Below, one piece after another: positions 3,950 through 33,605 of a stretch of DNA of 35,779 nt. A program made the translations under genes and the position numbers. The first letter of the stretch is position 1; each line of letters starts with the position of its first letter. The notes beneath the pieces were generated by a model, which was not told where the DNA came from, did no database searches, and saw only the letters and a list, made by a program, of their open reading frames with translations. This DNA is from an uncultured Gammaproteobacteria bacterium (GTDB taxonomy: Bacteria > Patescibacteriota > Microgenomatia > UBA12405): NCBI GenBank assembly GCA_964557475.1, contig CAZLAG010000001.1:7575-43353 (forward strand). The letters run 5' to 3'.

Positions 3950-3950
3950 T

Positions 3951-6022: not shown

Positions 6023-7119
6023 AGTCACTTAAAATTGCCATTTTTTATGATTGGTTAAATCAATGGGGTGGAGCAGAAAGGGTCTTGTTAAATATTTTAA
6101 AAATTTATCCATCAGCTACTGTATTTACCACCATATATAATCCCAAAAAAACCAAATGGCTTCCAAAAGGGACAAAAGTTATTCCATCAATTATTAACAA
6201 ATTTTCTTTAACTAAAAAGAATAGTCTATTTCATACTCCTTTTTATGGTATTGCCTTAGAACAGTTTGATTTTTCTCAATTCGATATTGTTATTTCCACC
6301 ACTCAAGTTTGCGGCCATTGTCTAATCACTCAACCAAAAACTCTTTTTGTTTGTTATTTGCACAACACCAATCGATATACTTATCAAACACCTTATCAGT
6401 TTAGATTTTTAAAACCATTTTTAAGAAATTATCAAAAAACTGATTTTATTTATGGTCAACGTCCGGATTATTTACTTTGTAATTCTAAAAATGTCCAACA
6501 AAGAATTTTAGATCATTATCATCGATCTAGTAAAATAATTTATCCCGGTGTAAATATAAATTACTTTAAACCTTCAACTCAAAAAACTTCTGAAAAATAT
6601 TTTCTAGTAGTTTCACGACTAGTTGCTCATAAAAAGATTGATCTAGCTATTAAAGCTTGTCATAAATTAAACCAAAAACTTATTATTGTTGGCCAAGGTC
6701 GAGATAAATTTGATTTAATTGATCTTAAAAAGAGGTTAAATGACAAAAATATTATTTTTACTGGAAAAGTATCTGCTAAAAAATTACTTTCCTTATATCA
6801 AAATTGCCAAGCCCTTATTTGTCCTCAAATAGAGGATTTTGGATTAACACCTCTAGAAGCTCAAGCTTGTGGTAAACCAGTAATTGCCCTAAGAAAAGGT
6901 GGAATTACCGAAACTGTTATCGACAAAAAAACTGGCCTCTTTTTTGAAAAACAAACCACCAAATCGCTTATTCATTGTTTAGAAAAATTTAACCCAAAAG
7001 ATTTCAAAAAAATTGATTGTCAAAATCAAGCAAAACAATTCTCAACCGAAAAGTTTATGTTAAACTTTAAACAAGAAATTGATCAACTATGGCAACAACA
7101 CCAAACCACTATTTTGTAA
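6007..7119 (+). CDS. Family 4 glycosyltransferase
   Basis: Motifs: KIAIFYDWLNQWGGAERV at the N-terminus and PQIEDFGLTPLEAQACGKPVIA (E-x7-E). Overlaps the upstream gene by 16 nt. Confidence 0.85.
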   Translation: MRNKVESLKIAIFYDWLNQWGGAERVLLNILKIYPSATVFTTIYNPKKTKWLPKGTKVIPSIINKFSLTKKNSLFHTPFYGIALEQFDFSQFDIVISTTQVCGHCLITQPKTLFVCYLHNTNRYTYQTPYQFRFLKPFLRNYQKTDFIYGQRPDYLLCNSKNVQQRILDHYHRSSKIIYPGVNINYFKPSTQKTSEKYFLVVSRLVAHKKIDLAIKACHKLNQKLIIVGQGRDKFDLIDLKKRLNDKNIIFTGKVSAKKLLSLYQNCQALICPQIEDFGLTPLEAQACGKPVIALRKGGITETVIDKKTGLFFEKQTTKSLIHCLEKFNPKDFKKIDCQNQAKQFSTEKFMLNFKQEIDQLWQQHQTTIL

Positions 7120-8177
7120 TATTTTGCGGAGGCACTGGGCCTCGACTTTGGCCTCAATCACGAGCTAATCATCCAAAACAATTTCTAACTTTAATTGGTA
7201 AAAAAACTCTTATAGAACAAACTATTGATAGAGCCAAAAAAGTTTGTCCAACAAAAAATATTTTTATTGTTTCCAACCAAAAATATCAAGAAAAATTAGA
7301 AAAATTAATTGGTAAAAAAATACCTAGCAAAAATTTTCTTTACGAACCAGCTAAAAAAAATACTGCCATGGCTTATATTTTTGCCATTAGCAAAATTTAT
7401 CAAATTGATCCAAATGCCATAATCACTACTAGTGCTGCAGATCAATATATCACTAAAAACTTAAGATTTAAAAAAACTGTAAATTATGCCTATAGTTTGG
7501 CATTAAAATTACAAAAAATTATCACCATTGGTATAAAACCAACTTGGCCCAATCCTTCATTCGGATATATTGTCCCCCAACAAAAAAGCAATCGTTATTC
7601 CAATATTAGTTTTTTTATCGAAAAACCAGATTCTGATACTGCTGAAAAACTCATCAAAAAAAATAGTTTTTGGAATTCTGATCTTCATACTTTTAGCTTA
7701 AAAACTATGTTAGATGAGTTTCAAAGAATTCATCCTGAATATTATGAATTTTTTGAAAAATTAATTAATAATCCCACTCCAAAACAAATTGAACTAATTT
7801 ACAAACAATCAGAAAATCTCAATATTAATCAGGCTATATCAGAAAAATCAAAAAATATGCTTGTAATTCCAGCAGAATTTGATTGGAGTGATGTTGGTGA
7901 ATGGAAATCTATTTATAGCAAACTCGATAAAGATCAAAACGGAATTGCCACTCTAACCAAAGATATCGATCATTTAGAAATTAATTCAAAAAATTGTTTA
8001 ATTTCTACTTCAAAAAACAAACTTGTTAGTTTAATAGATGTTAATAATTTGGCGGTTATTGACACACCAGACGGTTTATTAATTTGTAATATCGCTCATA
8101 ATGGTAGTGCTAAAGTACGAGACATAGTTTCTCAAATTGTTAAAAAGAAAAAATTAAAAAAATATTTTTTAAGCTAA
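7089..8177 (+). CDS. Mannose-1-phosphate guanylyltransferase-like sugar nucleotidyltransferase (short ManC type, no cupin/PMI domain)
   Basis: FCGGTGPRLWPQSRANHPKQFL matches the ManC/CpsB G-G-x-G-x-R-L-W-P-x-S-R...PKQF signature. WSDVGEW lies near the C-terminus. Overlaps the upstream gene by 31 nt. Confidence 0.8.
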   Translation: MATTPNHYFVIFCGGTGPRLWPQSRANHPKQFLTLIGKKTLIEQTIDRAKKVCPTKNIFIVSNQKYQEKLEKLIGKKIPSKNFLYEPAKKNTAMAYIFAISKIYQIDPNAIITTSAADQYITKNLRFKKTVNYAYSLALKLQKIITIGIKPTWPNPSFGYIVPQQKSNRYSNISFFIEKPDSDTAEKLIKKNSFWNSDLHTFSLKTMLDEFQRIHPEYYEFFEKLINNPTPKQIELIYKQSENLNINQAISEKSKNMLVIPAEFDWSDVGEWKSIYSKLDKDQNGIATLTKDIDHLEINSKNCLISTSKNKLVSLIDVNNLAVIDTPDGLLICNIAHNGSAKVRDIVSQIVKKKKLKKYFLS

Positions 8178-8178
8178 A

Positions 8179-8817
8179 ATGAAAAAACAAATTTTCCAAA
8201 TATTTAAAAGAACCATTGATATTGTTGGATCTTTAGTTCTTTTAATCATATTCTCTCCAATCATGTTGGTAACCATGGTACTGGTTAAAGCTAGCTCTCC
8301 AGGCCCTATTTTTTTTAAACAAAAAAGAGTTGGTAAAAATAGTCATCAATTTTGGATGTATAAATTTAGATCTATGTATACCGGTGATAATGATAAAAGA
8401 TTAAGAGAAAATTACCCAGAACTTTGGAAAAAATATAAAGAAAATGGTTGGAAATTAGAAATGTCTGAAGACCCTCGTATTACACCTATTGGTAAAAAAA
8501 TTAGATCATTAACCATTGATGAATTTCCTCAATTAATCAATGTCTTAAAAGGGGATATGAGTTTGATTGGCCCTAGAGCTTATCGAGAAGAAGAACTTCA
8601 AGAACAAGAAAAAAAATACCCTAAAACTAAAAAATATATTAATATTATTAGGTCAGCCAAACCTGGAATTACTGGTGTTTGGCAAACTTCCGGTAGGAAT
8701 GATATTTCTTTTGAACAAAGAGCCAAAATGGACGCCAATTATATTAAAAAACAGTCTTTTATAGAAGAAATAACTATCATCATAAAAACTCCGCTCTCTA
8801 TGTTTTCCAGGTGGTAA
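8179..8817 (+). CDS. Small monotopic phosphoglycosyl transferase (bacterial sugar transferase, PglC/WcaJ C-terminal-domain type)
   Basis: Motifs: KRTIDIVGSLVLLIIFSPIML, PGPIFFKQKRVGKN, YKFRSM, DPRITPIGKKIRSLTIDEFPQLINVLKGDMSLIGPRA. Confidence 0.9.
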   Translation: MKKQIFQIFKRTIDIVGSLVLLIIFSPIMLVTMVLVKASSPGPIFFKQKRVGKNSHQFWMYKFRSMYTGDNDKRLRENYPELWKKYKENGWKLEMSEDPRITPIGKKIRSLTIDEFPQLINVLKGDMSLIGPRAYREEELQEQEKKYPKTKKYINIIRSAKPGITGVWQTSGRNDISFEQRAKMDANYIKKQSFIEEITIIIKTPLSMFSRW

Positions 8818-8846
8818 TTTTTGAAAATTTTGTTTAAACTTATCTT

Positions 8847-10778
8847 ATGGATAATATTATTAATACAGTTCAGACATCAACCGTTAAACCAGTAAAAAGA
8901 AATAAGAGTAGAAAAATTGTTACTGTTTTATCAATAATCTTAATTATTATTACCATTTTGTTTTCCGTTTTCTTTTTTACTGTATTTGTTCCTGCTAAAA
9001 AAATACTTAATCAAGTAAATGCAATTAAAGGCGAATATCAAATCATTCAACAATCCGTTAGTGATAAAGATATTATAAAAATCAAAGAAAGTTTAACTAA
9101 TATTAAAACCGATACCAAAAAAATTGAACTAACTTACAAAAAAATGGGATTATTAAATATAATTCCAGGCGTCAGAAAATATTATCAAGATGGTCAAAAA
9201 GTTATTAATATTGCCAACGAAGGGATTACTTCAGTTGAAATAGTCATTCAAGCAATAGAGCCATATCAAGATTTTCTTGGTATTAAAGGCAGTTCAGAAA
9301 GTAGCGAAAAAACCACCGAAGATAGAATTGCTTTTTTAACTCAATCAGCCGAAGGACTTATTCCATATCTAGATGAATTAGAAATAAAAATTACCAATAT
9401 TGAAAACGAACTTAATCAAATTAATCCCAATCGTTATCCTGAGAAATTTAAAAATATTGAAATAAGATCAAAAATTTCTAAAGCTCAAGAAACTGTTACT
9501 CAAGTCAATGATTTAGTTAAAAATGGTAAACCTTTACTTTCTAAAATTTCTTGGTTACTTGGAAAAGACAGTCCTAGACATTATCTGATGGTTTTTCAAA
9601 ATGATGGAGAACTTCGACCAAGTGGTGGTTTTTGGACTGCTTATAGCACTATGACTGTTTCTAATGGTAAAGTCACTCCCGGCACAGCTAGTAATATTTA
9701 CGATTTAGATGATCGTCTTAAAAGTACTACCAAAGCTCCAAGATTAATTTCCTCATACCATATAAATGTTCCTTATCTTTATCTTCGTGACGCTAACTTA
9801 TCACCAGATTTTCCTACTGATGCTCAAATCTTTTTGGAAAGTTATATAAAAGCAATGAAACCAAAAGAAAGTTTTGATGCTGTTATCGCTATTGACACTC
9901 AATTATTAGCCGATATGGTTAAGGTTTTGGGTAAATTAGATACCAGAGTTGGAACATTTACCGCCGAACCTGACAATCGATGTAATGGTTGTCCTTCTAT
10001 AATATACGAAATTGAATGGATGGCTGGTCGTCCTCGTGATTATATCGAACTCAATCGAAAAGATTTCTTAAATCCATTAATGTCAGCTTTATTAGCCAAC
10101 GTTATGGGATCAGAAAAATCAAAAATGACGAGTCTTATAGAAGCTTTCTTTAAAAACGTTAACCAAAAACATGTTTTGGCTTATTTTACCGATAAAGAAA
10201 TGCAGACAGTTGGTAATTCTGCCAATATTACTGGACAAATCACTCAAACAGCCGAAACAATAGATTATCTCCATTTAAATGATGCCAATTTTGCTGCTGC
10301 CAAAAGTAATATGTTTGTTACTCAAAAAATTGATCACGATATTACTATCAAAAATGGTATTGCTGACCACAAGGTTTCAGTAACTTATACTAATCCTTTT
10401 GCTGCTTCAAATTGTAATCTTGAGAAAGGTGATTTGTGTCTTAATGCTTCAAAATATCGAGATTTATTCAGATTTTATGTACCTACTGGTTCAACCTTAA
10501 CTAAAATGACAGGATCTGAAGTTGAAACAGTTCAATACGAAGAATTAGGTAAACAAGTATTTGAAGGTTTTTATGGAGACAAATATCCTTTATATCCAAA
10601 ATCCAGTAGTAAAGTTACAATTCAATATAAATCTGGCGTTAAAATAGGTTCAAACTATACTTTGTATCTTCAAAAACAACCTGGTACTAAAGCTGTAGAA
10701 TACAATCTAACAATTAATGGTAAAAAAATGGATACTTTTAGCTGGGCTGCCGATAAAACCATCAAAGTATCTCTCTAA
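8847..10778 (+). CDS. DUF4012 domain membrane-anchored protein
   Basis: N-terminal TM helix (IVTVLSIILIIITILFSVFFFTVFV). The motif PRHYLMVFQNDGELRPSGGFWTAYSTMTVSNGKV is typical of DUF4012. Confidence 0.8.
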   Translation: MDNIINTVQTSTVKPVKRNKSRKIVTVLSIILIIITILFSVFFFTVFVPAKKILNQVNAIKGEYQIIQQSVSDKDIIKIKESLTNIKTDTKKIELTYKKMGLLNIIPGVRKYYQDGQKVINIANEGITSVEIVIQAIEPYQDFLGIKGSSESSEKTTEDRIAFLTQSAEGLIPYLDELEIKITNIENELNQINPNRYPEKFKNIEIRSKISKAQETVTQVNDLVKNGKPLLSKISWLLGKDSPRHYLMVFQNDGELRPSGGFWTAYSTMTVSNGKVTPGTASNIYDLDDRLKSTTKAPRLISSYHINVPYLYLRDANLSPDFPTDAQIFLESYIKAMKPKESFDAVIAIDTQLLADMVKVLGKLDTRVGTFTAEPDNRCNGCPSIIYEIEWMAGRPRDYIELNRKDFLNPLMSALLANVMGSEKSKMTSLIEAFFKNVNQKHVLAYFTDKEMQTVGNSANITGQITQTAETIDYLHLNDANFAAAKSNMFVTQKIDHDITIKNGIADHKVSVTYTNPFAASNCNLEKGDLCLNASKYRDLFRFYVPTGSTLTKMTGSEVETVQYEELGKQVFEGFYGDKYPLYPKSSSKVTIQYKSGVKIGSNYTLYLQKQPGTKAVEYNLTINGKKMDTFSWAADKTIKVSL

Positions 10779-14708: not shown

Positions 14709-16324
14709 ATAATTCTCGATATAAAACAATTTCATTAGCTCTAAGTCTATGTTTTGTTTTTATCATTTGTCGTTTTTTTTATATTCAAGTAATTAAAGGA
14801 TCTGAGTTAAGAGAAAAAGCATTAACTCAAACATATAAGCTTGAAAAAACTATTCCTAGTCGTGGAAAAATATTCTCTTCAGATAAATTTCCTTTAGCTA
14901 TTAATATTACTAATTATAAACTTTCAATATACAAACCAAATTTAGACCAAGATTTAACTCAAATATTTAACATCGTAAACCAAATTCACCCTCAATTTAA
15001 CCAAGAAAACAATAAATTAATTGATTTATTTAAAAATAATTCCAATCAAAAATGGTTGACTTTTAACAGTCTTTTTAATGAAGATGAAAAAAAACAACTC
15101 AATTTACCAGGTCTTATTTTTGAAAAATATGAAAGAAGATATTATCCAGAACAATCAATGGCTCAATCAATTTTAGGATTAGTAGCCAAAAATGATCAAG
15201 GATATGATATTGGTTATGGTGGACTTGAAGGTTATTATCAAAAACAATTAAAAGGAAAAACGGGATTTACATGGTCACCGCAAGACGCCACCGGCAAAGC
15301 TATTCTTACTAAAAAATCATGGAGTTCTATTGCTATAGATGGACAAGATTTGTACACCACTTTAAATCGTAGTGTTCAATTTCAAGTCGAATCAGAATTA
15401 AAAAATGGAGTTGAAAAATATGATGCTGATTCCGGATCTATTACAGTTTTAGACAGTAAAACTGGTGGAATTTTAGCTATGAGCACATTTACAGCAACGA
15501 ATTCTGCCACTCCAAGCGCTACCAAAATAAATTCCATATCAGACCTTTTTGAACCAGGGTCAATTTTTAAACCATTAATTGTCACTATGGCACTTGACAG
15601 TAAATCAATTTCTTCAGAATACATTTGTGATAAATGTGATAAACCCCTAACCATAGGTCAATATACAATCACAAATCACGATAACGCTACTCATCCTAAT
15701 TCAACATTAAGAGACATTATAAAAAACTCTGACAACATCGGTATGAGCCATATTATTGCCAAACTTGGATTAGAAAAATTCTTAGATTATTTTCAAAAAC
15801 TTGGTTTAAATCAAAAAACTGGTATAGATTTACAAGGAGAATCTAGGCCAAGTGTTAAAAAAGATTGGCCAGACATAGATTTGGCTACAGCTTCTTTTGG
15901 TCAGGGAATTGTTGTCACTCAAACTGGTATGATTCAAGCATTTAATACCATTGCTAATGATGGAATGCTAGTTAAGCCACATTTATTAATAAGTAAAAAT
16001 AATAATCCCAAAAAAGTTTTTGATTCAGAAGCTATTAAAGAAATTAAATCAATTTTAAAATATTCCGTTGAAAATGGTGTTGTTTCAACAATGAAACCAA
16101 AAAATTTAGAAGTTTGTGCCAAAAGTGGTACTGCCCAAATTGCTATTAAAGGCGGTTATACTGATTCTTCTACAATTGCTTCATATATTGGATTTTCACC
16201 ATGTGAGAATCCTAAATTTACCATGATTGTAACTATTAACAATCCTAAAAGTTCACCCTGGGGTTCTAGTACTGCTGCTCCTATTTGGTTCGAGCTAGCT
16301 TCAAAAATTGATCATTTGCTATAA
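14705..16324 (+). CDS. ftsI: Class B penicillin-binding protein (FtsI/PBP2-type transpeptidase)
   Basis: N-terminal TM helix and FYIQVIKG. Active-site motifs SxxK (GSIFKP), SxN (KNSDNIG) and K(T/S)G (AKSGTA). Confidence 0.9.
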   Translation: MNNSRYKTISLALSLCFVFIICRFFYIQVIKGSELREKALTQTYKLEKTIPSRGKIFSSDKFPLAINITNYKLSIYKPNLDQDLTQIFNIVNQIHPQFNQENNKLIDLFKNNSNQKWLTFNSLFNEDEKKQLNLPGLIFEKYERRYYPEQSMAQSILGLVAKNDQGYDIGYGGLEGYYQKQLKGKTGFTWSPQDATGKAILTKKSWSSIAIDGQDLYTTLNRSVQFQVESELKNGVEKYDADSGSITVLDSKTGGILAMSTFTATNSATPSATKINSISDLFEPGSIFKPLIVTMALDSKSISSEYICDKCDKPLTIGQYTITNHDNATHPNSTLRDIIKNSDNIGMSHIIAKLGLEKFLDYFQKLGLNQKTGIDLQGESRPSVKKDWPDIDLATASFGQGIVVTQTGMIQAFNTIANDGMLVKPHLLISKNNNPKKVFDSEAIKEIKSILKYSVENGVVSTMKPKNLEVCAKSGTAQIAIKGGYTDSSTIASYIGFSPCENPKFTMIVTINNPKSSPWGSSTAAPIWFELASKIDHLL

Positions 16325-17666
16325 TAAAACAATAAAAATGTCATTAAAATCGATAAATTTTCAAAAAATCAAAAACATCTTTTGGCATTACCCCAAAAAT
16401 TATCTTGTTAGTCTTCGTTATAATTTTCCAGCTAAGAAATTAAAACTCATTGGTATAACCGGAACTGATGGTAAAACTACCACCTGTATTTTAGTTTATG
16501 AGACATTAAAAAAAGCTGGTATAAAAGCTGGAGTTATCACCACCATAGGAGCTAAATATGGTGATAATCAAGAAATTAGTACTGGCCTACACATGACTAG
16601 TCCAGACCCAGAATTATTTCAACAAATACTTAGTCAAATGCTAGCTGCAGGAGTAACTCATGTTGTTTGCGAAGTGACTGCTCACGGATTAGACCAATAT
16701 CGATTTTTAGGATGTCACTTTATAACTGCCGCTATTACCAATACTTCACACGAACATTTGGATTATTACCAAAACATGAACGAATATATTAAATCAAAAG
16801 CTAAAATTTTTGATCAATCAGATTTTGCCATTCTCAATAAAGATGATCTTTCATACAACATCATAAAACCATTAGTAAAATCTCCACTCAGTACTTATAG
16901 CATTAATTCAAAATCTAATTATCAAGCTAAAAATATTAAATTAACTGACAAAAAACTAACCTTCGAAGTTAATAATCTTTCAATAGTTACTGATAGTAGT
17001 TATTACTATCAGATCAATAATATTTTAGTTGCTCTAAATATAATTGACAGTTTAAAAGTAAATCAAAAGTTTTTGCTTGATACAATCAAAAACTTTCCAG
17101 AAACTAAAGGTCGTCGAGAAGAAGTGAATAATGATTTTAAGTTCAAAACTATTGTTGATTTTGCTCATACACCCAATGCTTTAGAAAAAACTCTTTCATC
17201 TCTAAAAAAAATTACTAAAGGCAAAATAATTGTTATTTTTGGTGCTACTGGTGGTAGAGATCAGAGTAAACGTCCGGAAATGGGTAAAGTAGTTTCACTT
17301 TTTTCTGATATTGCTGTAATTACTTCCGACGATACTCGCAATGAAGACATCAAACAAATTAATCAACAAATTATAAATGGTATTGATCATAATAGTTCTC
17401 ATTTTTTTGATATTCAAAATATAGAAAATAATAAACAGATTCAAGAAATACTTAAAATTGCAGATAAAAAATTTACTTATTTTAATATTCCCAATCGACA
17501 AGATGCTTTTAACCTAGCTGTAAAATTGGCCCAAACCGATGATGTTGTAATTGCTTGTGGAAAGGGTCATGAAGATACCATTCTTCATGGCAATACTGAA
17601 TATCCTTGGTCAGAAACTGAAGCATTTAGAACTGCCTTAAAACTAAAAAAATATGATCCAGTTTAA
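16308..17666 (+). CDS. murE: MurE-type Mur ligase (UDP-MurNAc-L-Ala-D-Glu:diamino acid ligase) with a shortened N-terminal domain
   Basis: P-loop GITGTDGKTTT. Other MurE-like motifs: CEVTAHGLDQYR, TNTSHEHLDYY, VDFAHTPNALEKTL, FGATGGRDQSKRP and CGKGHED. The start may instead be the ATG at 16338 (MSLKS...), which avoids the overlap with ftsI. Confidence 0.85.
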   Translation: MIICYNKTIKMSLKSINFQKIKNIFWHYPKNYLVSLRYNFPAKKLKLIGITGTDGKTTTCILVYETLKKAGIKAGVITTIGAKYGDNQEISTGLHMTSPDPELFQQILSQMLAAGVTHVVCEVTAHGLDQYRFLGCHFITAAITNTSHEHLDYYQNMNEYIKSKAKIFDQSDFAILNKDDLSYNIIKPLVKSPLSTYSINSKSNYQAKNIKLTDKKLTFEVNNLSIVTDSSYYYQINNILVALNIIDSLKVNQKFLLDTIKNFPETKGRREEVNNDFKFKTIVDFAHTPNALEKTLSSLKKITKGKIIVIFGATGGRDQSKRPEMGKVVSLFSDIAVITSDDTRNEDIKQINQQIINGIDHNSSHFFDIQNIENNKQIQEILKIADKKFTYFNIPNRQDAFNLAVKLAQTDDVVIACGKGHEDTILHGNTEYPWSETEAFRTALKLKKYDPV

Positions 17667-18249
17667 TTTAAATAAAAATCAATCAATAGAATCAAACTAT
17701 CAACAAGGTTTTCTTCCACAAAGAAATCAAAAAGATCTTTGGTATCAAGATAGTAGTAGTAGATCTAATTTGTTTCAAATTAATCTCAGTTCAGAAAATA
17801 GAAGAATTTTAAGAAAAACAGATAATTTTTCATTTATTAAAACCAATTTAAAAAATTTTGAATTTAATCTTAATATTCAGAAAGAAATTTTTTCCTGGAT
17901 AAAACAATTAGGTTGGGAATTTCCTATAAGTTCGGTTAAAAAAATATTTACCAATCATATCTTTAATTTTGTCTACACTTGGTATGATGAAAACAATCAA
18001 ATAGTTGCTTATTCAATTTGTTATTTTTCAGAAACTATTAGTCATATTGCTTATGTCTTTTATAATCCCAAATATAACCATAGCAATCTTCCAATTAGAT
18101 TGGTTTTACAAACTATAATTGATAGTCAAAAAGAAAACCTTCAATTTTGTTATCTAGGTCGTTTTTCTTCAGAAACTGGATTTTATAAACGAAACATGCC
18201 CGGATTTGAATATTTTAAAGACAACCAATGGATTCCTTATGAGAAATAA
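17653..18249 (+). CDS. Mini ATE/Bpt-like (arginyl/leucyl-tRNA-protein transferase family, GNAT-like fold) putative aminoacyl-tRNA-dependent transferase
   Basis: The C-terminal half resembles the ATE_C/Bpt consensus: IVAYSICYFSETISHIAYVFYNPKYNHSNL...FCYLGRFSSETGFYKRNMPGFEYFKDNQW versus the remembered pattern SavYtFyDPd...SLG...YLGY...KM.YK..F.P.E....W. The N-terminus YQQGFLPQR...F.LSSENRRILRK resembles ATE_N but lacks its cysteines. Judged by eye only. Confidence 0.5.
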   Translation: MIQFNLNKNQSIESNYQQGFLPQRNQKDLWYQDSSSRSNLFQINLSSENRRILRKTDNFSFIKTNLKNFEFNLNIQKEIFSWIKQLGWEFPISSVKKIFTNHIFNFVYTWYDENNQIVAYSICYFSETISHIAYVFYNPKYNHSNLPIRLVLQTIIDSQKENLQFCYLGRFSSETGFYKRNMPGFEYFKDNQWIPYEK

Positions 18250-18288: not shown

Positions 18289-19662
18289 ATGCATATTCAT
18301 ATTGTCGGAATCGCCGGAACCATGACAGCACCTTTGGCTGCTAATCTTAAAAAAAGAGGTGTTTATGTCACCGGATCAGATCAAGAAAAAATATATCCAC
18401 CAGTCAGTACTATTTTGAAAAAGTCGGATATATTGATCAATTCGATAGATATCAATACAAATATAGATCTAGCCATTATCGGTTCTTCGTATCTTTCTTT
18501 TGAAAAAACAAAAAAAGAGTTTTATCAAATAAAAAAATTAAAAATTCCATATATCTCGGCCACTAACTATTTAGCTCAAAACTTAATTAAAGAAAATTCT
18601 ATTCTAATTGCTGGAAGCTTTGGTAAAACTACAATTACTAGTTTATTGACTTGGATTTTTATAAAAGCCAAAAAAGATCCAAGTTATATGTTTGGTGGAT
18701 ATCCAAAAAATAAGTTAGAACCTTTAAATTTTTCATCTTCGGATCTATCAATAGTTGAAGCTGATGAATCAATAAATGGACTTGATCGAAAAGCTAAATT
18801 TTTATATTATCCAGTTAAACATTTAATTTTAACTAGCGCCGATTGGGAACATAAAGATTCTTATCCTAACCAAATTAAAAATTTTCAAGCCTTTAAAAAA
18901 TTAATCAATAATATTCCCAGTAATGGAACACTTTTGATTAATTCAAATGGTTATCAAACAAAAAAACTAAGTTTATATTCCAAAGCTAAAGTAATTACTT
19001 ATAACTCTTTTACTTCGGATTATTATATAGAAAATATTGAAATTCATAATCATATTACAAACTTAGTAATTCATACTCCAAAAGGACCTTTAGCAATTCA
19101 AACTACTTTAATTGGTCAGTTTAATTTTGAAAATATTCTAGCAGCAGTTAGTTTGGCTGACCATTTAGGAATTAACTTCCGTATTATTCAAAAGGCTGTT
19201 TTTAGTTTTAAAGGTGTCAAAAGACGTCTTGAATTGATCGATAATTTACACAATATTTTATTTTTTGAAGATTTCGCTCAATCTACCAATCGTATTAAAT
19301 CAACCATAGATGCTTTAAAAACTCATTTTCCAGATAGAAAAATTAAAGTCTTTTTTCAACCTCATGCTTCTTTTACACTTTTTAAAACTAATTTGATTGG
19401 ATTAAAAAAATCATTTAGTAAAGCTGACGAAATTGTATTAGGTCCAATTAGGTTTAATCCAAAAATTGATAAAAAATCTAGAACTACCGCCAAGGATTTT
19501 AAAAATGAAATTGGCTCAAAATTAATTTATATCCCTATCGAAAAAGAAATTAAAGCTTACTATATACATCAATTATCATCAAATGATATCCTTGTTTATA
19601 TGAGTTCTGGTGGCCTATCTGGAAACAAAATTATTAAATCTATTATTAGGCATTTTCGTTAA
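18289..19662 (+). CDS. Mur ligase of the Mpl/MurC family, with Mpl-like signatures
   Basis: MHIHIVGIAGTMTAPLAANLKKRGVYVTGSDQEKIYPPVSTIL parallels E. coli Mpl MRIHILGICGTFMGGLA...VTGSD.NVYPPMSTLL. EADESINGLDRKAKFLYYPVKHLILTS parallels Mpl EADEYDCAFFDKRSKFVHYCPRTLILNN. P-loop AGSFGKTT. Comparison sequences are from memory. Confidence 0.8.
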   Translation: MHIHIVGIAGTMTAPLAANLKKRGVYVTGSDQEKIYPPVSTILKKSDILINSIDINTNIDLAIIGSSYLSFEKTKKEFYQIKKLKIPYISATNYLAQNLIKENSILIAGSFGKTTITSLLTWIFIKAKKDPSYMFGGYPKNKLEPLNFSSSDLSIVEADESINGLDRKAKFLYYPVKHLILTSADWEHKDSYPNQIKNFQAFKKLINNIPSNGTLLINSNGYQTKKLSLYSKAKVITYNSFTSDYYIENIEIHNHITNLVIHTPKGPLAIQTTLIGQFNFENILAAVSLADHLGINFRIIQKAVFSFKGVKRRLELIDNLHNILFFEDFAQSTNRIKSTIDALKTHFPDRKIKVFFQPHASFTLFKTNLIGLKKSFSKADEIVLGPIRFNPKIDKKSRTTAKDFKNEIGSKLIYIPIEKEIKAYYIHQLSSNDILVYMSSGGLSGNKIIKSIIRHFR

Positions 19663-20999: not shown

Positions 21000-22034
21000 A
21001 TGATCCATCTTTATCTAGGTTTATTGTTGTTTTCTTTCTTTATCACCAGTACCTTAGTTGTTCCATTTATTAATCTTCTTTATAAACTCAAATTTCAACG
21101 TCAAAAGCAACAAACTACAGATTTTCAAAATAATCGAACCCCAATATTCGATAAATTTCATAATTTAAAACAGGGAACTCCGGTCGGCGGTGGACTTCTT
21201 ATCATTATTTCTGTCTGTATTATGTTTATTATTTTATTTCCTTTACTCAAATTTTCAAAAATATTTATCTCATCAAACTTTCAAATAAACTACGAATTAG
21301 AAATAATTTTCTTTACTTTCATAAGTTTTGGAATTCTTGGTCTTTACGATGATATTTATAAATTCTTTGGTTTTAAAAAAACTGGTTTTTTTGGTTTAAG
21401 ATTGATTCACAAACTCATACTTCAAATTGTCTTATCTTTAATTATTTCTTTTTTAATTTATTTCAGACTTAAGATTGATTTTTTCTATATACCATTTTTT
21501 GGACCATTACACTTAGGTTTCTTTTTTATTCCAATATCTACATTAATTATTACCGCCTTTACTAATTTTTTTAATATTACCGACGGACTCGATGGATTAT
21601 CATGTGGGTTATTAATGATTGCTCTTTTTGCTTTTTGGTTTTTATCTAATAGCTCGATGGATACTCCTACATCATTATTTTTATCTCTTTGGTTAGGTTC
21701 TTTAATTGCTTTTTTATATTTCAATATCTATCCAGCTCGTATTTGGCTAGGGGATGTTGGTGCACTTTCATTTGGTGCTACATTTGCCGTTATTGCTATT
21801 CTTTTAGGTAAAATAGTTCCTTTAATTATTATTGGTTCTCCATTTATAGTTGAAGGTATGAGTAGCGCTATTCAAATATTTAGTAAAAAATATTTGGGTA
21901 AAAAAATATTTCCTGCTGCTCCTTTACACTTGACTCTTCAAAAAATTGGTTGGGAAGAACCTAAAATTGTCGCTAGAGCCTGGTTGGCTGGTATTATATT
22001 ATCTATTTTTGGACTATGGTTGGGACTAAACTAA
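21000..22034 (+). CDS. mraY: Phospho-N-acetylmuramoyl-pentapeptide transferase MraY
   Basis: Polytopic membrane protein. Motifs: KQGTPVGGG, YDDIYKF, NITDGLDGL and GDVGALSFG. Confidence 0.92.
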   Translation: MIHLYLGLLLFSFFITSTLVVPFINLLYKLKFQRQKQQTTDFQNNRTPIFDKFHNLKQGTPVGGGLLIIISVCIMFIILFPLLKFSKIFISSNFQINYELEIIFFTFISFGILGLYDDIYKFFGFKKTGFFGLRLIHKLILQIVLSLIISFLIYFRLKIDFFYIPFFGPLHLGFFFIPISTLIITAFTNFFNITDGLDGLSCGLLMIALFAFWFLSNSSMDTPTSLFLSLWLGSLIAFLYFNIYPARIWLGDVGALSFGATFAVIAILLGKIVPLIIIGSPFIVEGMSSAIQIFSKKYLGKKIFPAAPLHLTLQKIGWEEPKIVARAWLAGIILSIFGLWLGLN

Positions 22035-22585
22035 TTAAAGAGTTAAAATTAGAAATTAATAAATACGTTGGAATTCCTTATTGGAAAAATGTTTTAAAAG
22101 ACGGCAAAATAATCAAAGAAGGGTTTATGGGCGGAAAGGGGAATGCAAAAGATATTGCTTTAAAAACAGTTGAGTTAGCTAATAACCAAAATTTAAAATT
22201 ACTCAATCTTTCAGAAAAAGAAATTTACAATTTTCAAAAGAAAAATAAAATCGGCATTGATTGTTCTGGATTAGTTTGTCAGTTATTGATCTTTTACGGA
22301 AATTTAATTGGTAAAGACATTAATTTAAATCCACGAAAAACTTCTGCCGATATGCTTACTTCAAAACCATTATCCAAAAAAATTAATAACAACGATATTC
22401 AAACTGGCGATTTAATTCGTCAAAAAAATGGTCATCATGTTTTGTTTGTTGTTGAAAAAAACGATAGTGTTATCACTTATGTTGATAGCTCTAGAGAAAA
22501 TAGAGGTGTTCACTACGGTCAAGCAAAATTAACTGACTCTAATTTTGAAAATCAAGGAATATTTAGATTATTTCTCTTCGACTAA
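22016..22585 (+). CDS. NlpC/P60-family cysteine peptidase-like protein with no signal peptide
   Basis: Motifs: YVGIPY, catalytic Cys in GIDCSGLVCQLL, and His in GDLIRQKNGHHVLFVV. The N-terminus MVGTKLIKELK is hydrophilic, with no signal or TM segment. Overlaps the mraY 3' end by 19 nt. Confidence 0.7.
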   Translation: MVGTKLIKELKLEINKYVGIPYWKNVLKDGKIIKEGFMGGKGNAKDIALKTVELANNQNLKLLNLSEKEIYNFQKKNKIGIDCSGLVCQLLIFYGNLIGKDINLNPRKTSADMLTSKPLSKKINNNDIQTGDLIRQKNGHHVLFVVEKNDSVITYVDSSRENRGVHYGQAKLTDSNFENQGIFRLFLFD

Positions 22586-22732
22586 TTCTCGATAATTTAA
22601 AGGATTAATGGAGGTAATTTCAACCTCAGTTCCACATTCGTTACATTCCAAAATATCACCAACTTCTTCATTACCATTAATAATAATTTCTGCCCCACAA
22701 TCAGGACATACAACTTTCTTTGTTCCTGTCAT
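22568..22732 (-). CDS. 54-aa Cys4 zinc-ribbon protein, LysW-like (amino-group carrier protein fold) but without the EDWGE tail
   Basis: Hand translation of the minus strand gives MTGTKKVVCPDCGAEIIINGNEEVGDILECNECGTEVEITSINPLNYRELVEEK*. It is below the ORF-track size cut-off. It fills the only large gap (190 nt) in the cluster. The pattern CPxCGAE-x12-C-xx-CG-x-E-x-E...PL matches Thermus LysW as I remember it: MVGTCPECGAELRLENPELGELVVCEDCGAELEVVGLDPLRLEPAPEEAEDWGE. Confidence 0.65.
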   Translation of the reverse strand: MTGTKKVVCPDCGAEIIINGNEEVGDILECNECGTEVEITSINPLNYRELVEEK

Positions 22733-22775
22733 ATTTAAAATAAAAAATATATAATTGAGTTAACTAGATCATTAT

Positions 22776-23597
22776 ATGACAAACACACCTTTAGTTAAAA
22801 TAGACAATTTTTATTTAAAAAGGGAAGATCAAAATCCCACTGGATCAGCCAAAGATAGAGCCATTCCATTTCAAATTATTAATCTTAAACAACATGGTTT
22901 TACTAAAGCTGTTATTTCTAGCACTGGTAACGCTGCTATTTCAGCAGCTCATTTTTGCCAACAAAACCAAATTGAATTAACTATATTTTTATCTTCAAAA
23001 GTAAATCAAAAAAAATTATCTCTCTTAAAAAAATTCTCTTCAGAAATTATTTTAACTCCACAGCCAATAAGTGAAGCTTTTAAATATTCTAAAAACAATC
23101 AAACTTATTTACTTCGTCAGTCTACAGATCCATCAGCCCTAATTGGATATCAACAAATTTCTATTGAAATACTAAATGACTTACCTCAAATTACTAGTAT
23201 TTTCATTCCCGTAGGTAGCGGTACCACTCTTTTAGGTATTTCTCAAAAACTTCCTCCAACAGTAAAAATATTTGCTATTCAATCAGCTGCTAATTGTCGA
23301 ATTTCCAAATCATTTGATAAAAATTTTATTCAAGAATCACGTTTAATTACTGACGCATTATCAGCCAAATTTTTTCCCAAAAAAAATGATATTATTTCAG
23401 CCATTAAAAAATCAAACGGATCTGCTTTCACAATTCAAAACAAAGATATTTTATTAGCCAATGAATTTCTTGAATCCAAAAATATCACTACTTCACTCGA
23501 AGGAGCATTAGCCTTAGCAGGCTATCAAAAAGCCATCAATAATAAAATTGAAATTGGACAATTCCCCGTTATTCTTTTGACAGGTGCTAAACGATGA
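22776..23597 (+). CDS. Compact fold-type II PLP-dependent enzyme (threonine synthase-like / Trp-synthase beta superfamily)
   Basis: FYLKREDQNPTGSAKDRA carries the PLP-lysine motif; the Lys codon is at 22851-22853. Other motifs: SSTGNAAISAA, the Gly-rich loop PVGSGTTLLGI and TSLEGALALAG. At 273 aa it is shorter than canonical ThrC. Confidence 0.7.
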   Translation: MTNTPLVKIDNFYLKREDQNPTGSAKDRAIPFQIINLKQHGFTKAVISSTGNAAISAAHFCQQNQIELTIFLSSKVNQKKLSLLKKFSSEIILTPQPISEAFKYSKNNQTYLLRQSTDPSALIGYQQISIEILNDLPQITSIFIPVGSGTTLLGISQKLPPTVKIFAIQSAANCRISKSFDKNFIQESRLITDALSAKFFPKKNDIISAIKKSNGSAFTIQNKDILLANEFLESKNITTSLEGALALAGYQKAINNKIEIGQFPVILLTGAKR

Positions 23598-24724
23598 ATC
23601 TTTTAAACATTCTTCAAGAAAGTAATTATGATTTTTTCTTCATCGGTGTAGATGATTTTTTAAGTATTAACGTCCCAGAATTAAAAAATTTTTATACTCT
23701 AAACCCAAAAAATTTAGATATTAAAATTGATATTAAAAATTCCGGTGTCTTTTTATCAAATCCAAAAGTTATTGAATATATTAAAAAAAAATCTATTCAA
23801 ACTAATCATCAAGTTGTAATTATTCCTTTTAAGCCATCAGGAAAAATAGAACATATCTGCCAAAAAGAAAATTGGATTTATGCTGCTAATCCAGCCAAAC
23901 TCAATCGATTTTTAGAAGATAAAATAAATTTTTCCAATCTTTGTCAAAAATTTAATTTTCCCACTATACCATCTGTAATCGATGATTTTAATCAACAAAA
24001 TTTTCAAAAATATCAACAAATTTTAAATAATAATTTAGTCATTCAAACTCGTTTTGGTTGGGCTGGAAAAAGTACTTTTCATTCGTCAAGTTGGGAAGAA
24101 ATAGAAAATAAAATTCCGATTGACACTCCAGTAAAATTTGCTCCTTTACTATCTGGTTATTCACTTATCAATAATTGTTGTCTTACTTCAAAAGGACTCA
24201 TTCAAAGCCCTCCTGGTCTTCAATATACCGGCTTGTCTCAGTTTACATCAAACCCTTTTACCACAGTCGGTCGGCAATGGCCATCCTATGCACCGGTAAA
24301 TGTTGTTGAAAAAATTAGATCGTTAACTCAAAAATTTTCAGATATTTTAAAAGTAATAAATTATAAAGGTTTTTTTGGTTTAGATTTTTTTATTAGTAAA
24401 GATGAAGTATTTATTTTAGAATGTAACCCAAGGCTTACAGCATCTTTTGAACTCTATCATCAAATTGAAACTAAAAATAATCTTAACTCATTATTTTTAT
24501 TTCATTTATTTTCATTTTTACCACTAAAAATTGAATTTGATATTTCTCAAGAAATTAAAAGATTTTATAATCCAGCTATAATTGGTTCTGAAATCACTAA
24601 AAAAGACAAATTTAACAATACTTGTGGCCGTTACCGTGATTTTATTCCATTCTCACTACAAAGTGACCCTATAGATATTGCCCCATCAATCATCAAATCT
24701 GCCAATGAAACCGACCATATCTAA
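23594..24724 (+). CDS. ATP-grasp superfamily ligase, subfamily unresolved
   Basis: The C-terminal catalytic region YKGFFGLDFFISKDEVFILECNPRLTASF (ECNPR at 24419-24433) resembles CarB-like and ATP-grasp_3/4 motifs (E-x-N-P-R). LVIQTRFGWAGKST looks like a central-domain loop. The ATGA overlap with the PLP enzyme gene suggests translational coupling. Confidence 0.7.
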   Translation: MNLLNILQESNYDFFFIGVDDFLSINVPELKNFYTLNPKNLDIKIDIKNSGVFLSNPKVIEYIKKKSIQTNHQVVIIPFKPSGKIEHICQKENWIYAANPAKLNRFLEDKINFSNLCQKFNFPTIPSVIDDFNQQNFQKYQQILNNNLVIQTRFGWAGKSTFHSSSWEEIENKIPIDTPVKFAPLLSGYSLINNCCLTSKGLIQSPPGLQYTGLSQFTSNPFTTVGRQWPSYAPVNVVEKIRSLTQKFSDILKVINYKGFFGLDFFISKDEVFILECNPRLTASFELYHQIETKNNLNSLFLFHLFSFLPLKIEFDISQEIKRFYNPAIIGSEITKKDKFNNTCGRYRDFIPFSLQSDPIDIAPSIIKSANETDHI

Positions 24725-25874
24725 ATCACCACTTATCTTTTTAATTTCAACTCTAATAATTATTGGTATCATTTTTATTTCCATTGCCTCATTAAGTGAA
24801 GCTACTACCAGTATTGGTGATAAATTTTTCTTTTTAAGAAAACAAAGTATTTGGTTAGTTATTAGTCTCTTTGTATATTTTATTTTTTCTAAAATTAAAC
24901 TTGAAACTATTAAAAAATATATTCCATTATTTTTCATAGTTTCTGTTATTGCTTTAATATTAGTTATCGTTCCTGGACTTAGTGATGAAACTCTTGGTGC
25001 TCATCGCTGGTTGAATTTAGGTATTATTAAATTTCAACCTTCAGAGATTTTAAAACTTAGTTTAGTTTTGTTTTTTGCCAAACTTTTCTCTAAAAATGAA
25101 AATTGTCTTTTGAAAAATTTAATTATCTATTTAGGTATTCCATTTGTTCTTATAATAATTGAACCAAATTTAAGTACTGCTATTTTGATTTCAGCTATTT
25201 CAATCTCTCTTTACTATCTTGGTGGTGGAAAAATCGGAACTCTTTTTGTATTTTGTGCATTTTTAATTTCGGTTAGTTTAATTTTGGTTTTAGTTTCTCC
25301 ATATAGATCTGCTAGATTAAAAACCATGCTCGATCCTCAACAAAATCAAGAAACAGCCTCTTATCATAGTAACCAAATTACTTTAACTCTTGCCTCTGGT
25401 GGTTTTTTTGGTAAAGGTTTTGCTAATTCAGATCAAAAATACAGTTTTTTACCCAAAATTTCCACTGATTCAATTTTGGCAGTTATTGGGGAAGAAGCCG
25501 GATTTATTGGATTATTTTCAATCATAATAATTTATATTTCATTAATTTCTTATTTATTTAAATTAGCCAATATTATTCCAGATAAATTTCAATCACTTCT
25601 TATTTCCGGAACTGCTCTTTGGATTGCTTATCAAACTTTAATTAATATTTCAGCCATTGCTGGTATTATTCCTTTAACCGGAGTGCCATTACCTTTTATT
25701 TCATATGGAGGTTCATCTTTAACCACCTTAGCTGCAGCTATTGGGTTAGTTCACAATATCGAAAAAAATAACTCAACCCTGCTATACTCAAATCATGAGT
25801 CAAAAGATAACAAAGACCATCATCATCACCGGCACTCATCTAACTCCAGCCCTAGAACTAATTCGTCAACTTAA
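24678..25874 (+). CDS. ftsW: SEDS-family peptidoglycan glycosyltransferase FtsW
   Basis: Polytopic membrane protein. Motifs: HRWLNLGIIKFQPSEILK, SYHSNQITLTLASGGFFGKGF, LPKISTDSILAVIGEEAGFIG and PLTGVPLPFISYGGSS. The start may be the ATG at 24705 (MKPTISK...). A His-rich tail overlaps murG. Confidence 0.9.
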   Translation: MPHQSSNLPMKPTISKSPLIFLISTLIIIGIIFISIASLSEATTSIGDKFFFLRKQSIWLVISLFVYFIFSKIKLETIKKYIPLFFIVSVIALILVIVPGLSDETLGAHRWLNLGIIKFQPSEILKLSLVLFFAKLFSKNENCLLKNLIIYLGIPFVLIIIEPNLSTAILISAISISLYYLGGGKIGTLFVFCAFLISVSLILVLVSPYRSARLKTMLDPQQNQETASYHSNQITLTLASGGFFGKGFANSDQKYSFLPKISTDSILAVIGEEAGFIGLFSIIIIYISLISYLFKLANIIPDKFQSLLISGTALWIAYQTLINISAIAGIIPLTGVPLPFISYGGSSLTTLAAAIGLVHNIEKNNSTLLYSNHESKDNKDHHHHRHSSNSSPRTNSST

Positions 25875-32606: not shown

Positions 32607-33605
32607 ATGTTTAAAAATGGTAGATTGTCACTTTTAGTTAGCTTTGGGGTTTTGTTTTGTATTAATATTCTTATGATCAGTTCTATTGCACCGTCGTTGG
32701 TCATAAAACAACTGATTGCTTGGGTAATTGGAATCATTTTATTTTTTCTTGGAAAACAAATCAACGTTAAACAAATTAATTCTTCAAAATGGTTTATCTT
32801 TATTGCTTGTTGTATTTTTTTAGTCCTACCAATTTTACTAAACAATATTACTCGAGGTTCTAGAAGATGGATTAATGTTGCTGGTACCACCCTTCAACCA
32901 TCAGAGTTTGTCAAACCGTGGCTCATGCTAGTTTTATCAAATTCCAATATCCCACTTCTTCATCTTATTCCAGTTGGAATCGTTATGGCCCAACCAGACT
33001 TGGGTAGTGCTATTTCAATTCTCTGTTTAATGATTCCAATCATTATTTATAATAAAAAAATATTTAAATTTTCCTTAATTATTGGTGTTTGTTTTTTAAT
33101 TACTTCACCAATTATTTACAAGGTCATTCTTCACGATTATCAAAAAGAAAGAATAATTAATTTTATTAATCCATTATCAGATCCTTTAGGTAAAGGTTAC
33201 AATGTTATTCAATCAAAAATTGCTGTTGGTTCTGGTGGAATATTTGGTAAAGGTTATAGAAAGGGGACTCAAGGACAATTATTATTCTTACCAGAAAAAC
33301 ATACTGACTTCATGTTTGCCGCTACTGCTGAAGAATTAGGTCTTACTGGAATTTTAATTATTTTTGTATCTTATTATTTTCTTTTGAGGAATTTATTTAA
33401 TAAAGCATATAGTACTACCAACAACAAACCTTTATTTTTATTCACATTAGGAATTGCTTTTCAAATATGGATTCAAGCTTTTATCAATATTGGAATGAAC
33501 ATTGGGCTTCTTCCTGTAACGGGAATTCCATTACCTTTTATTTCTGTTGGTGGTTCATCAATTATGACTCTACTTTTTTCAATTGGCATTATCTATTCAT
33601 CCTAA
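32607..33605 (+). CDS. rodA: SEDS-family protein, RodA-like (second FtsW/RodA paralogue)
   Basis: Motifs: LQPSEFVKP, QPDLGSAI, QSKIAVGSGGIFGKGY, LPEKHTDFMFAATAEELG and PVTGIPLPFISVGGSS. Confidence 0.85.
   Translation: MFKNGRLSLLVSFGVLFCINILMISSIAPSLVIKQLIAWVIGIILFFLGKQINVKQINSSKWFIFIACCIFLVLPILLNNITRGSRRWINVAGTTLQPSEFVKPWLMLVLSNSNIPLLHLIPVGIVMAQPDLGSAISILCLMIPIIIYNKKIFKFSLIIGVCFLITSPIIYKVILHDYQKERIINFINPLSDPLGKGYNVIQSKIAVGSGGIFGKGYRKGTQGQLLFLPEKHTDFMFAATAEELGLTGILIIFVSYYFLLRNLFNKAYSTTNNKPLFLFTLGIAFQIWIQAFINIGMNIGLLPVTGIPLPFISVGGSSIMTLLFSIGIIYSS

Follow-up and report, generated by a model that had tools for sequence, protein, structure and literature searches.

Several described systems come close to the locus reported here. 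In the LysW/LysX systems of Thermus, Sulfolobus, and Thermococcus (lysine and arginine biosynthesis) and of Streptomyces (AmCP), a zinc ribbon with the tail EDWGE carries the substrate on the gamma-carboxylate of its terminal Glu. In CysO-CysM-Mec+ of Mycobacterium, a pyridoxal phosphate (PLP) enzyme acts on the C-terminus of the carrier and a dedicated peptidase does the trimming; a ThrC-like PLP enzyme also acts on a protein carrier in MetO-MetM of Streptomyces. RacD/Aslfm of Enterococcus and Lactococcus combines an aspartate racemase with a D-aspartate ligase, an ATP-grasp enzyme that acylates the Lys epsilon-amine of the peptidoglycan precursor. Glutathionylspermidine synthetase/amidase is an ATP-dependent amide ligase fused to a papain-like amidase (CHAP/NlpC-P60 clan) which reverses the bond. 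Non-canonical entry of D-Glu or gamma-D-Glu-peptides into UDP-MurNAc-peptide is known from MurD2/MurL of Xanthomonas and from murein-peptide recycling (Mpl, YkfC, MpaA). In this study, a stretch of 35,779 nucleotides (contig CAZLAG010000001.1, assembly GCA_964557475.1; hereafter the window) was analyzed, in which a module of four genes, encoding an NlpC/P60-type peptidase (P60), a LysW-like zinc ribbon, a PLP enzyme (PALP family), and an ATP-grasp ligase, lies between mraY and ftsW of the dcw (division and cell wall) cluster. The module is a variant of the carrier-protein/ATP-grasp amidoligase systems, linked to peptidoglycan synthesis, and it probably makes or edits a cell-wall amino acid. 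An earlier reading of the window, made from the sequence only, knew of no account of such an arrangement, and no description of the module was found in the literature searched (peptidoglycan of Shapirobacteria and Microgenomates, LysW together with ATP-grasp, and the dcw cluster of the Candidate Phyla Radiation, CPR).

The window has a GC content of ~30%, and the closest relatives of its proteins belong to Candidatus Shapirobacteria (Microgenomates, CPR). The sequence-only reading had placed four non-canonical genes in the mraY-ftsW slot, where murD normally lies, and all four were recovered there:

21000..22034, plus strand: mraY, the upstream boundary of the slot (TIGR00445, 161 bits; PF00953 match)
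22016..22585, plus strand: NlpC/P60-type cysteine amidase/peptidase, 189 aa, cytosolic (PF00877, 22.7 bits)
22568..22732, minus strand: LysW-like acidic zinc-ribbon protein, 54 aa (PF21344, 45.7 bits)
22776..23597, plus strand: compact ThrC-like fold-type II PLP enzyme, 273 aa (PF00291, 149 bits)
23594..24724, plus strand: ATP-grasp amidoligase, 376 aa (PF02655, 27.8 bits)
24678..25874, plus strand: ftsW, the downstream boundary of the slot (TIGR02614, 307 bits; alternative ATG start at 24705)

Relatives were collected by a scan with the ATP-grasp protein over one genome per GTDB species, which gave 117 relatives, and the loci of 80 were retrieved. The order MraY-P60-LysW(-)-PALP-ATP-grasp-FtsW, where the minus sign marks the opposite strand, was invariant in the informative loci of these 80 species-level genomes of Shapirobacteria, as would be expected if the four genes stay syntenic with mraY and ftsW. 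The genes for P60, LysW, and PALP were all found upstream of the ATP-grasp gene in 66 of 66 informative core loci, and ftsW followed immediately downstream in 59 of the 66. Protein identities across the core genomes drop to 41-57%; median identity to the window proteins is 52-63% for the four module genes, with similar values for FtsW and MurG. The four-gene arrangement is selected, far beyond chance.

Overlaps between the genes are conserved as well. The mraY-P60 overlap measures 19 nt in 68 of 71 genomes. The ATGA coupling of the PLP and ATP-grasp genes noticed earlier is real, and 60 of 80 orthologous pairs overlap. The ATP-grasp gene in turn overlaps ftsW by 20-47 nt, depending on the choice of the ftsW start codon. 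The P60 and LysW-like genes are convergent and share 18 nt at their 3' ends (22568-22585), an overlap found in 45 of 72 genomes. The start codons of the divergent LysW-like and PLP genes are separated by only 43 nt (22733-22775; median 39 nt), so that the room for two promoters is small; a promoter and terminator scan gave matches no higher than the shuffled expectation.

The trio LysW(-)-PALP-ATP-grasp is also present in Gottesmanbacteria, Parcubacteria (Moraniibacteriota and Paceibacterota), a Peribacteria-labelled contig, and Chloroflexota, and in a Roizmanbacteria contig whose beginning is cut off only PALP and ATP-grasp are seen. Among 42 loci of this wider family, PALP was detected in 36, LysW in 33, and P60 in 22. 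A profile search of 1.8 billion cluster representatives returned 2002 relatives of the ATP-grasp protein, mostly of ~450 aa, and these include fusions with a ThrC-like PALP enzyme (P0179), with a canonical NlpC/P60 domain (P0177, P0195, P0244, P0253), and with a GNAT domain (P0260). Such fusions tie the PLP, ATP-grasp, and P60 enzymes into one pathway; together with the occurrence of the trio they indicate that the three enzymes are functionally coupled independently of the Shapirobacteria context. Based on the invariant synteny, the gene overlaps, and the fusion proteins, the four genes behave as one functional unit.

The relation of this unit to murD differs among lineages. In sister Microgenomates, whose loci were reached through a MurF seed, the mraY-ftsW slot holds a canonical MurD (also named MurD by NCBI) in 11 loci and the module ([P60]-LysW-PALP-ATP-grasp) in 10, and both in none. 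In one further sister contig (L171), ftsW comes right after mraY and both murD and the module are missing, which shows that the slot can be empty. In Parcubacteria and their relatives the genes run MraY-Amidohydro_3-(112 aa)-canonical P60-MurD-LysW(-)-PALP-ATP-grasp-FtsW-MurG-MurC. Gottesmanbacteria carry P60-MurD-LysW(-)-PALP-ATP-grasp away from ftsW and mraY, MurD remaining with the module, and a Chloroflexota contig shows the order ATP-grasp-MurD-LysW(-)-PALP. A MurD gene lies immediately upstream of the trio in Parcubacteria, Peribacteria, Gottesmanbacteria, and Chloroflexota. The module thus stands beside MurD in some lineages and in its place in others, which links it to the MurD step. 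The linkage to murD, mraY, and ftsW bears out the proposal that the module is tied to peptidoglycan precursor synthesis. The related suggestion that it replaces part of the classical Mur pathway holds to the extent that the module occupies the murD slot in Microgenomates; as a general replacement of MurD it fails, since in Parcubacteria, Gottesmanbacteria, and Chloroflexota module and MurD are neighbors.

The module-associated MurDs form a subfamily of their own (L111, L123, L137, and L240-L281 in other CPR lineages; L125 in Chloroflexota). In a search of all GTDB species representatives, no more than 84 stretches fitted their motifs IHIVGITGAE and FVPQSWRLY, and their C-terminal motif is SPAAAFFY, compared with SPACASFDMF in the consensus of the canonical sister-lineage MurDs. 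The module-associated MurDs may have changed amino-acid or acceptor specificity. The Amidohydro_3 enzyme between mraY and murD in Parcubacteria (~530 aa; L111 1843-3435, L123 1511-3097, L257-L280) is inserted together with the 112-aa open reading frame (ORF) and a 350-aa canonical NlpC/P60 protein. It reaches 189 bits on NF006560, which we take to be a D-aminoacylase/N-acyl-D-Glu deacylase family.

No murD, murF, ddl, or murB was found in the window, in agreement with the sequence-only reading; only two Mur ligases are present, one MurE-like and one MurC-like, and no Mur genes lie in the 10 kb beyond its right end. Module-bearing close relatives (L083, L084) have the order MurC-MurB-MurA-Ddl-MurF-MraY-P60-LysW-PALP-ATP-grasp, with scores of 335-337 bits for Ddl (TIGR01205), 256-270 bits for MurF, and 249 bits for MurB. 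The order MurA-Ddl-MurF-MraY-module was also labelled in L173 and in L178 and L170, which are re-fetched copies of L083/L084. It had been suggested that the PLP enzyme and the ATP-grasp ligase follow the logic of Alr plus Ddl; the genuine Ddl, MurF, and MurB in the module's own cluster in close relatives contradict this. Since these enzymes coexist with it, the module is not a stand-in for Alr/Ddl or MurF, and an identity of the ATP-grasp protein as a divergent Ddl was ruled out for the same reason. A MurF motif scan, with narrow motifs and low sensitivity, matched 0 of 79 core assemblies compared with 8 module-bearing sister assemblies. A MurD seed scan recovered only the module-associated subfamily, and in a profile search with the canonical sister-lineage MurDs all 120 matches listed were at least 53% identical to the MurD of L176, divergent MurDs being beyond its reach. 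MurB is needed if MurA and MurC are used, and its absence from a cluster is therefore not absence from the genome.

The 54-aa protein is a LysW homolog. Its score on PF21344 is well above the cut-off of 27, that on TIGR01206 is 43.7 bits (under the cut-off of 53.2), and it matched Thermus LysW (PDB 3wwl) with E=3.6e-8 and 39% identity, as well as PDB 5k2m (E=3.9e-7). It has four Cys and ends in E-L-V-E-E-K. The tail EEK is present in 128 of 133 LysW-like ORFs from Microgenomates, Parcubacteria, Chloroflexota, and the other lineages with the module, and the terminal Lys in 132 of 133; the LysW hallmark EDWGE was absent from these proteins. A spurious minus-strand ORF was ruled out by the LysW homology and the conservation, the orientation being kept in all core loci. 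The strict conservation of the terminal Lys across phyla implies that this residue is itself functional, via its epsilon-amine, its alpha-carboxylate, or both. By analogy with LysW, the zinc ribbon is the presumed carrier; as the tail lacks EDWGE, covalent loading is an analogy only. The LysW/LysX carrier logic proposed from the sequence therefore stands as far as the carrier fold is concerned, but neither the tail nor the ligase, which is not of the RimK/LysX type, conforms to it. The label "lysine biosynthesis protein LysW" would be wrong here, given the absence of EDWGE and the location in a cell-wall cluster.

The ATP-grasp protein exceeds the PF02655 cut-off (23.2 bits), and its best NCBIfam match is NF005096 (PRK06524-related; 99.7 bits against a cut-off of 684). 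Neither RimK/LysX nor Ddl models of the library matched the window protein; weak RimK/LysX matches (28-42 bits) occurred only in distant family members. A single-sequence search of PDB gave no match. A three-domain ATP-grasp fold is borne out by its AlphaFold2 (AF2) model (pLDDT 93), which Foldseek matched to PurK, PurT, and biotin carboxylase with E about 1e-16 (3e-16) and TM ~0.6. Membership in a well-characterized unrelated pathway had been raised as a possible objection; no characterized pathway or family was found for this enzyme. Some orphan members of the family (L088, L108, L122, L115), without LysW or PALP, are located among glycosyltransferases and sugar-nucleotide enzymes, and a weak similarity to PF14397 ("sugar-transfer associated ATP-grasp") agrees with this setting. 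This hints that some family members acylate sugar acids. The MraY-ATP-grasp pair of L115, a Chloroflexota contig, was rejected as a dcw locus; it lies in a sugar-dehydratase/polysaccharide cluster instead.

The PLP enzyme has the motif NPTGSAKDR and K26 as its PLP lysine, and it retains the SS-x-GN (S-x-x-G-N) loop that binds the carboxylate. Its best NCBIfam matches are archaeal-type ThrC models (107 bits against a cut-off of 358), in which the alignment begins at profile position 65 of 347, the ThrC N-terminal domain being absent. Against PDB, the family profile scored 92-106 bits with ThrC (best entries 2zsj, 6cgq, 2d1f, and 1uim) and 80-86 bits with Ser/Asp racemases. In the alignment to Aquifex ThrC (2zsj), the Arg column of the phosphate site N-S-x-N-P-x-R is not conserved, and a conserved R-x-S (R114/S116) is found instead. 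An ordinary threonine synthase with an intact phosphohomoserine site, which had been named among the results that would refute a special role, was thus ruled out by the missing domain, the lost phosphate-binding Arg, and the low model score.

Enzymes of the NlpC/P60 family typically cleave gamma-D-glutamyl-Lys/diaminopimelate (DAP) amide bonds. The window P60 protein is a divergent member with a ~55-aa insert between the PYW and GIDCSG motifs. Its score on PF00877 is just under the gathering cut-off of 23; several orthologs exceed it and are named "NlpC/P60 family protein" by NCBI. The catalytic triad is intact: Cys83 and His141 are invariant, and residue 157, Asp in the core proteins, is His in the wider family. 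The family profile matched Spr/MepS in PDB, where a single-sequence search with the window protein gave no match. The AF2 model (pLDDT 84) has P60 domains as its top Foldseek neighbors in PDB (3i86, MepS, RipA, 4xcm; probability 0.93-1.0, TM 0.35-0.57). As had been noted, the protein lacks a signal peptide, and no membrane segment is present.

A carrier of the LysW type, together with an amide ligase that uses ATP, a PLP enzyme for which the alpha-amino acid end must be free, and a cysteine amidase of the cytosol, fits a cycle of loading, transformation, and release. We propose, at a probability somewhat short of even, that the four genes form one carrier-protein pathway of this kind, which would supply the stem peptide at the MurD step. 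The zinc ribbon would offer its invariant acidic tail Glu-Glu-Lys-COOH, to which the ATP-grasp enzyme would attach an amino acid with ATP. The load would most likely be Glu or Asp, linked by its side-chain carboxylate to the terminal Lys at the epsilon-amine and leaving the alpha-amino acid end free; such an attachment would explain the invariant Lys. The truncated ThrC-like enzyme, with its alpha-carboxylate loop intact, could then work on the free alpha-center by racemization or by beta/gamma chemistry, and the P60 amidase would free or transfer the product and regenerate the carrier. The product would enter the stem peptide at position 2 or at the D-Glu-Lys junction. Because the module is linked to MurD, D-Glu or a gamma-glutamyl unit is the simplest candidate product, and D-glutamate supply is our guess for a specific role. 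We infer here the covalent role of the zinc ribbon, the attachment site, the order of the steps, and the identity of the amino acid.

Several observations weigh against this proposal. The carrier tail is without EDWGE, and the ATP-grasp enzyme is unrelated to LysX/RimK and has generic fold neighbors. The orphan ATP-grasp members in glycosyltransferase clusters suggest that the acceptor of the family could be a sugar acid and not a protein. P60 accompanies the trio in only 22 of the 42 wider-family loci and is absent in some lineages; in Parcubacteria an amidohydrolase is encoded nearby, and P60 may serve a separate function in muropeptide salvage. Glutamate racemase is reported for some CPR bacteria in a reference cited in PMC11974145, so that a new route to D-Glu is not obviously needed there.

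The dcw cluster of the window has the order mraW, ftsI, MurE-like ligase, ATE_C-like gene, MurC-like ligase, murA, mraY, the module, ftsW, murG, an ftsQ-sized ORF, ftsA, and ftsZ, with the following ligase and ATE_C-like genes upstream of murA:

16308-17666, plus strand: MurE-like ligase (TIGR01085 match, from profile position 71)
17653..18249, plus strand: ATE_C-like (aminoacyl-tRNA transferase-like) gene between murE and murC, 198 aa (PF04377, 27.5 bits)
18289-19662, plus strand: MurC-like ligase (MurC model, 242 bits; Mpl model, 178 bits)

The N-terminal UDP-binding domain is absent from the MurE-like ligase, which gave no PF01225 match. The distance from the upstream stop codon to the P-loop is about 34-79 residues (median 42) for this protein, compared with ~111 in the MurC-like protein. 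The domain is likewise missing from MurE in each of the 72 related loci with the module and in two sister loci without it. The MurC-like ligase scores under both curated cut-offs (335 bits for MurC and 389 bits for Mpl), and its substrate may accordingly be L-Ala or a preformed peptide. The ATE_C-like protein, which resembles arginyl/leucyl-tRNA protein transferases of GNAT fold, reaches 23-26 bits on arginyltransferase models and is highly conserved, with 53 invariant columns; its profile gave no match in PDB. The gene was found in module-bearing loci of the Shapirobacteria type only and was not labelled in sister loci with MurD in the slot. Its product may be a factor associated with the module, perhaps a tRNA-dependent transferase acting on a wall precursor or on the carrier.

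Two further features of the window were recorded. A polysaccharide gene set is located upstream of the dcw cluster (452-10778, plus strand) and encodes GT2 and GT4 glycosyltransferases, a Wzy-like polymerase, a mannose-1-P guanylyltransferase-like NTP transferase, a Bac_transf initiating transferase, and a DUF4012 protein. At 32607-33605 (plus strand), after ileS downstream of ftsZ, lies the gene for a second SEDS protein (RodA-like, 332 aa), a placement kept in most related loci.

Other explanations of the module can be weighed against the carrier cycle. The PLP enzyme might be a racemase (for D-Asp, D-Ser, or D-Glu) and the ATP-grasp enzyme a ligase acting directly on the precursor, joining the D-amino acid to UDP-MurNAc-peptide at either the epsilon-amine of Lys or the alpha-carboxylate of D-Glu, with the EEK zinc ribbon as a specificity subunit, regulator, or substrate mimic instead of a carrier. 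Operons combining a racemase with an ATP-grasp D-Asp ligase are known, the racemase scores of the PLP family are not far below those with ThrC (80-86 against 92-106 bits), the module lies beside MurD, MraY, and FtsW, and the tail ends in a Glu-Lys similar to the D-Glu-Lys of the stem peptide; the orphan members in glycan clusters also suggest small-molecule acceptors. A LysW homolog that is co-inherited with the enzymes (33 of 42 wider-family and 66 of 66 core loci) and keeps an invariant tail is, however, hard to explain as a mimic, the ATP-grasp-P60 fusions suggest a make-and-break cycle, and no sequence relation to Ddl or Aslfm-type ligases was detected, which together make a branch or side-chain ligase unlikely. 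We regard a role in muropeptide salvage as comparably improbable. A YkfC-like cytosolic P60, joined by Amidohydro_3 in Parcubacteria, would degrade scavenged L-Ala-gamma-D-Glu-Lys/DAP peptides, and the recovered D-Glu or L-Ala-D-Glu would be re-used by the ATP-grasp enzyme and the MurC/Mpl-like ligase, bypassing de novo steps in an episymbiont. Cytosolic NlpC/P60 recycling enzymes such as YkfC are known, and the P60 without a signal peptide, the parcubacterial order MraY-Amidohydro_3-P60-MurD-LysW-PALP-ATP-grasp, and the scores of the MurC-like ligase under both cut-offs (242 and 178 bits) are consistent with salvage. It would, however, leave without a role the conserved core made up of the PLP enzyme and the EEK carrier (PALP 36/42, LysW 33/42, P60 22/42); no peptide transporter was seen in the clusters, and the fusions join P60 to ATP-grasp and not to Mpl.

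A true replacement of MurD, and possibly of further Mur steps, in Shapirobacteria-type genomes would be a more far-reaching explanation, and we think it doubtful. A glutamyl residue or a pre-assembled peptide would be built on or delivered from the carrier, and the ATP-grasp and P60 enzymes would add the unit to the precursor with the help of two proteins that accompany the module, the ATE-like transferase and the N-terminally shortened MurE. The alternation of MurD and module in one slot of sister Microgenomates (11 and 10 loci, never both) argues for it, as do the core clusters, which are also without MurF, Ddl, and MurB, and the MurF motif scan (0 of 79 core assemblies, 8 module-bearing sister assemblies). 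The motifs of that scan were narrow and its sensitivity low, however; use of MurA and MurC requires a MurB, whatever genes the cluster contains, L171 has MraY next to FtsW with neither MurD nor module, and three other lineages have both the module and MurD. There is only a small chance that in Shapirobacteria-type CPR a carrier-protein route has replaced the classical MurD step, with murF and ddl possibly gone too. The corresponding scheme, in which a glutamyl unit or short peptide would be placed on the terminal Lys, converted by the PLP enzyme, and handed over by P60 as a transferase or amidase, is likewise improbable. Least probable of all, and in our view very unlikely, is a carrier-dependent sulfur or other general amino-acid pathway unrelated to the wall, with an incidental location in the dcw cluster. 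The ATP-grasp enzyme would then activate the C-terminal carboxylate of the carrier, the ThrC-like enzyme would add O-phospho-Ser or O-phospho-homoserine, and the peptidase would trim. The order peptidase-carrier-PLP enzyme-activating enzyme parallels mec-cysO-cysM, and MetM is a ThrC homolog working with the carrier MetO; but the tail is EEK and not Gly-Gly, no E1-like or sulfur-transfer gene is nearby, and the association with murD, mraY, and ftsW is kept from phylum to phylum and extends to a MurD that travels with the module. Amino-acid biosynthesis is also generally absent from CPR genomes (PMC6744442).

Few bacterial pathways are as conserved or as well studied as the cytoplasmic synthesis of peptidoglycan, a major target of antibiotics that has been regarded as fixed. 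The conservation of a LysW-type carrier module at the MurD position of the dcw cluster, in hundreds of uncultured CPR species as well as some Chloroflexota, points to precursor chemistry of a kind not yet described, either a new supply of D-Glu or an unusual amino acid or even a MurD bypass. If the terminal Lys serves as the handle in place of Glu, the LysW-type proteins would extend from amino-group to possible carboxyl-group carriers; a MurD bypass, if true, would be a third way to build the stem peptide, or else a new route to D-glutamate would be at hand. All parts of the module are small soluble proteins, which makes the proposal testable.

Compared with the described systems, the module combines features of several. 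It shares with LysW/LysX the small acidic four-Cys zinc ribbon, a LysW homolog encoded beside genes for ATP-grasp ligase, PLP enzyme, and hydrolase, and both would follow a load-modify-release logic. It differs from them in the reactive terminal residue (Lys of EEK instead of Glu of EDWGE), in a ligase that is not of the RimK/LysX type, in a fold-type II ThrC-like PLP enzyme where theirs is a fold-type I aminotransferase, and in a cysteine NlpC/P60 hydrolase where theirs is an M20 metallopeptidase. No kinase or reductase genes of the LysZ/LysY type were seen in the module loci, and the context is the dcw cluster with murD, in organisms without lysine biosynthesis. CysO-CysM-Mec+ and MetO-MetM provide a precedent for the proposed cycle, with a fold-type II/ThrC-like PLP enzyme, a small ATP-activated carrier, and trimming by a peptidase. 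Their carrier is, however, a ThiS/MoaD beta-grasp protein ending in Gly-Gly, with E1-type adenylation and a JAMM metalloprotease, whereas the module has a zinc ribbon ending in EEK, an ATP-grasp enzyme, and NlpC/P60, and sulfur genes are absent. Like RacD/Aslfm, the module pairs an ATP-grasp ligase with an enzyme that converts an amino acid, but RacD/Aslfm has neither carrier nor peptidase, its racemase is cofactor-independent, and the ligases show no detectable sequence relation. The fusions of ATP-grasp with NlpC/P60 resemble glutathionylspermidine synthetase/amidase, which has other substrates and another context and neither a carrier nor a PLP enzyme. MurD2/MurL and the recycling systems are similar in being encoded beside murD-type genes and, for recycling, in using a cytosolic NlpC/P60 enzyme; unlike these, the module includes a LysW-like carrier, a ThrC-like PLP enzyme, and an ATP-grasp ligase.

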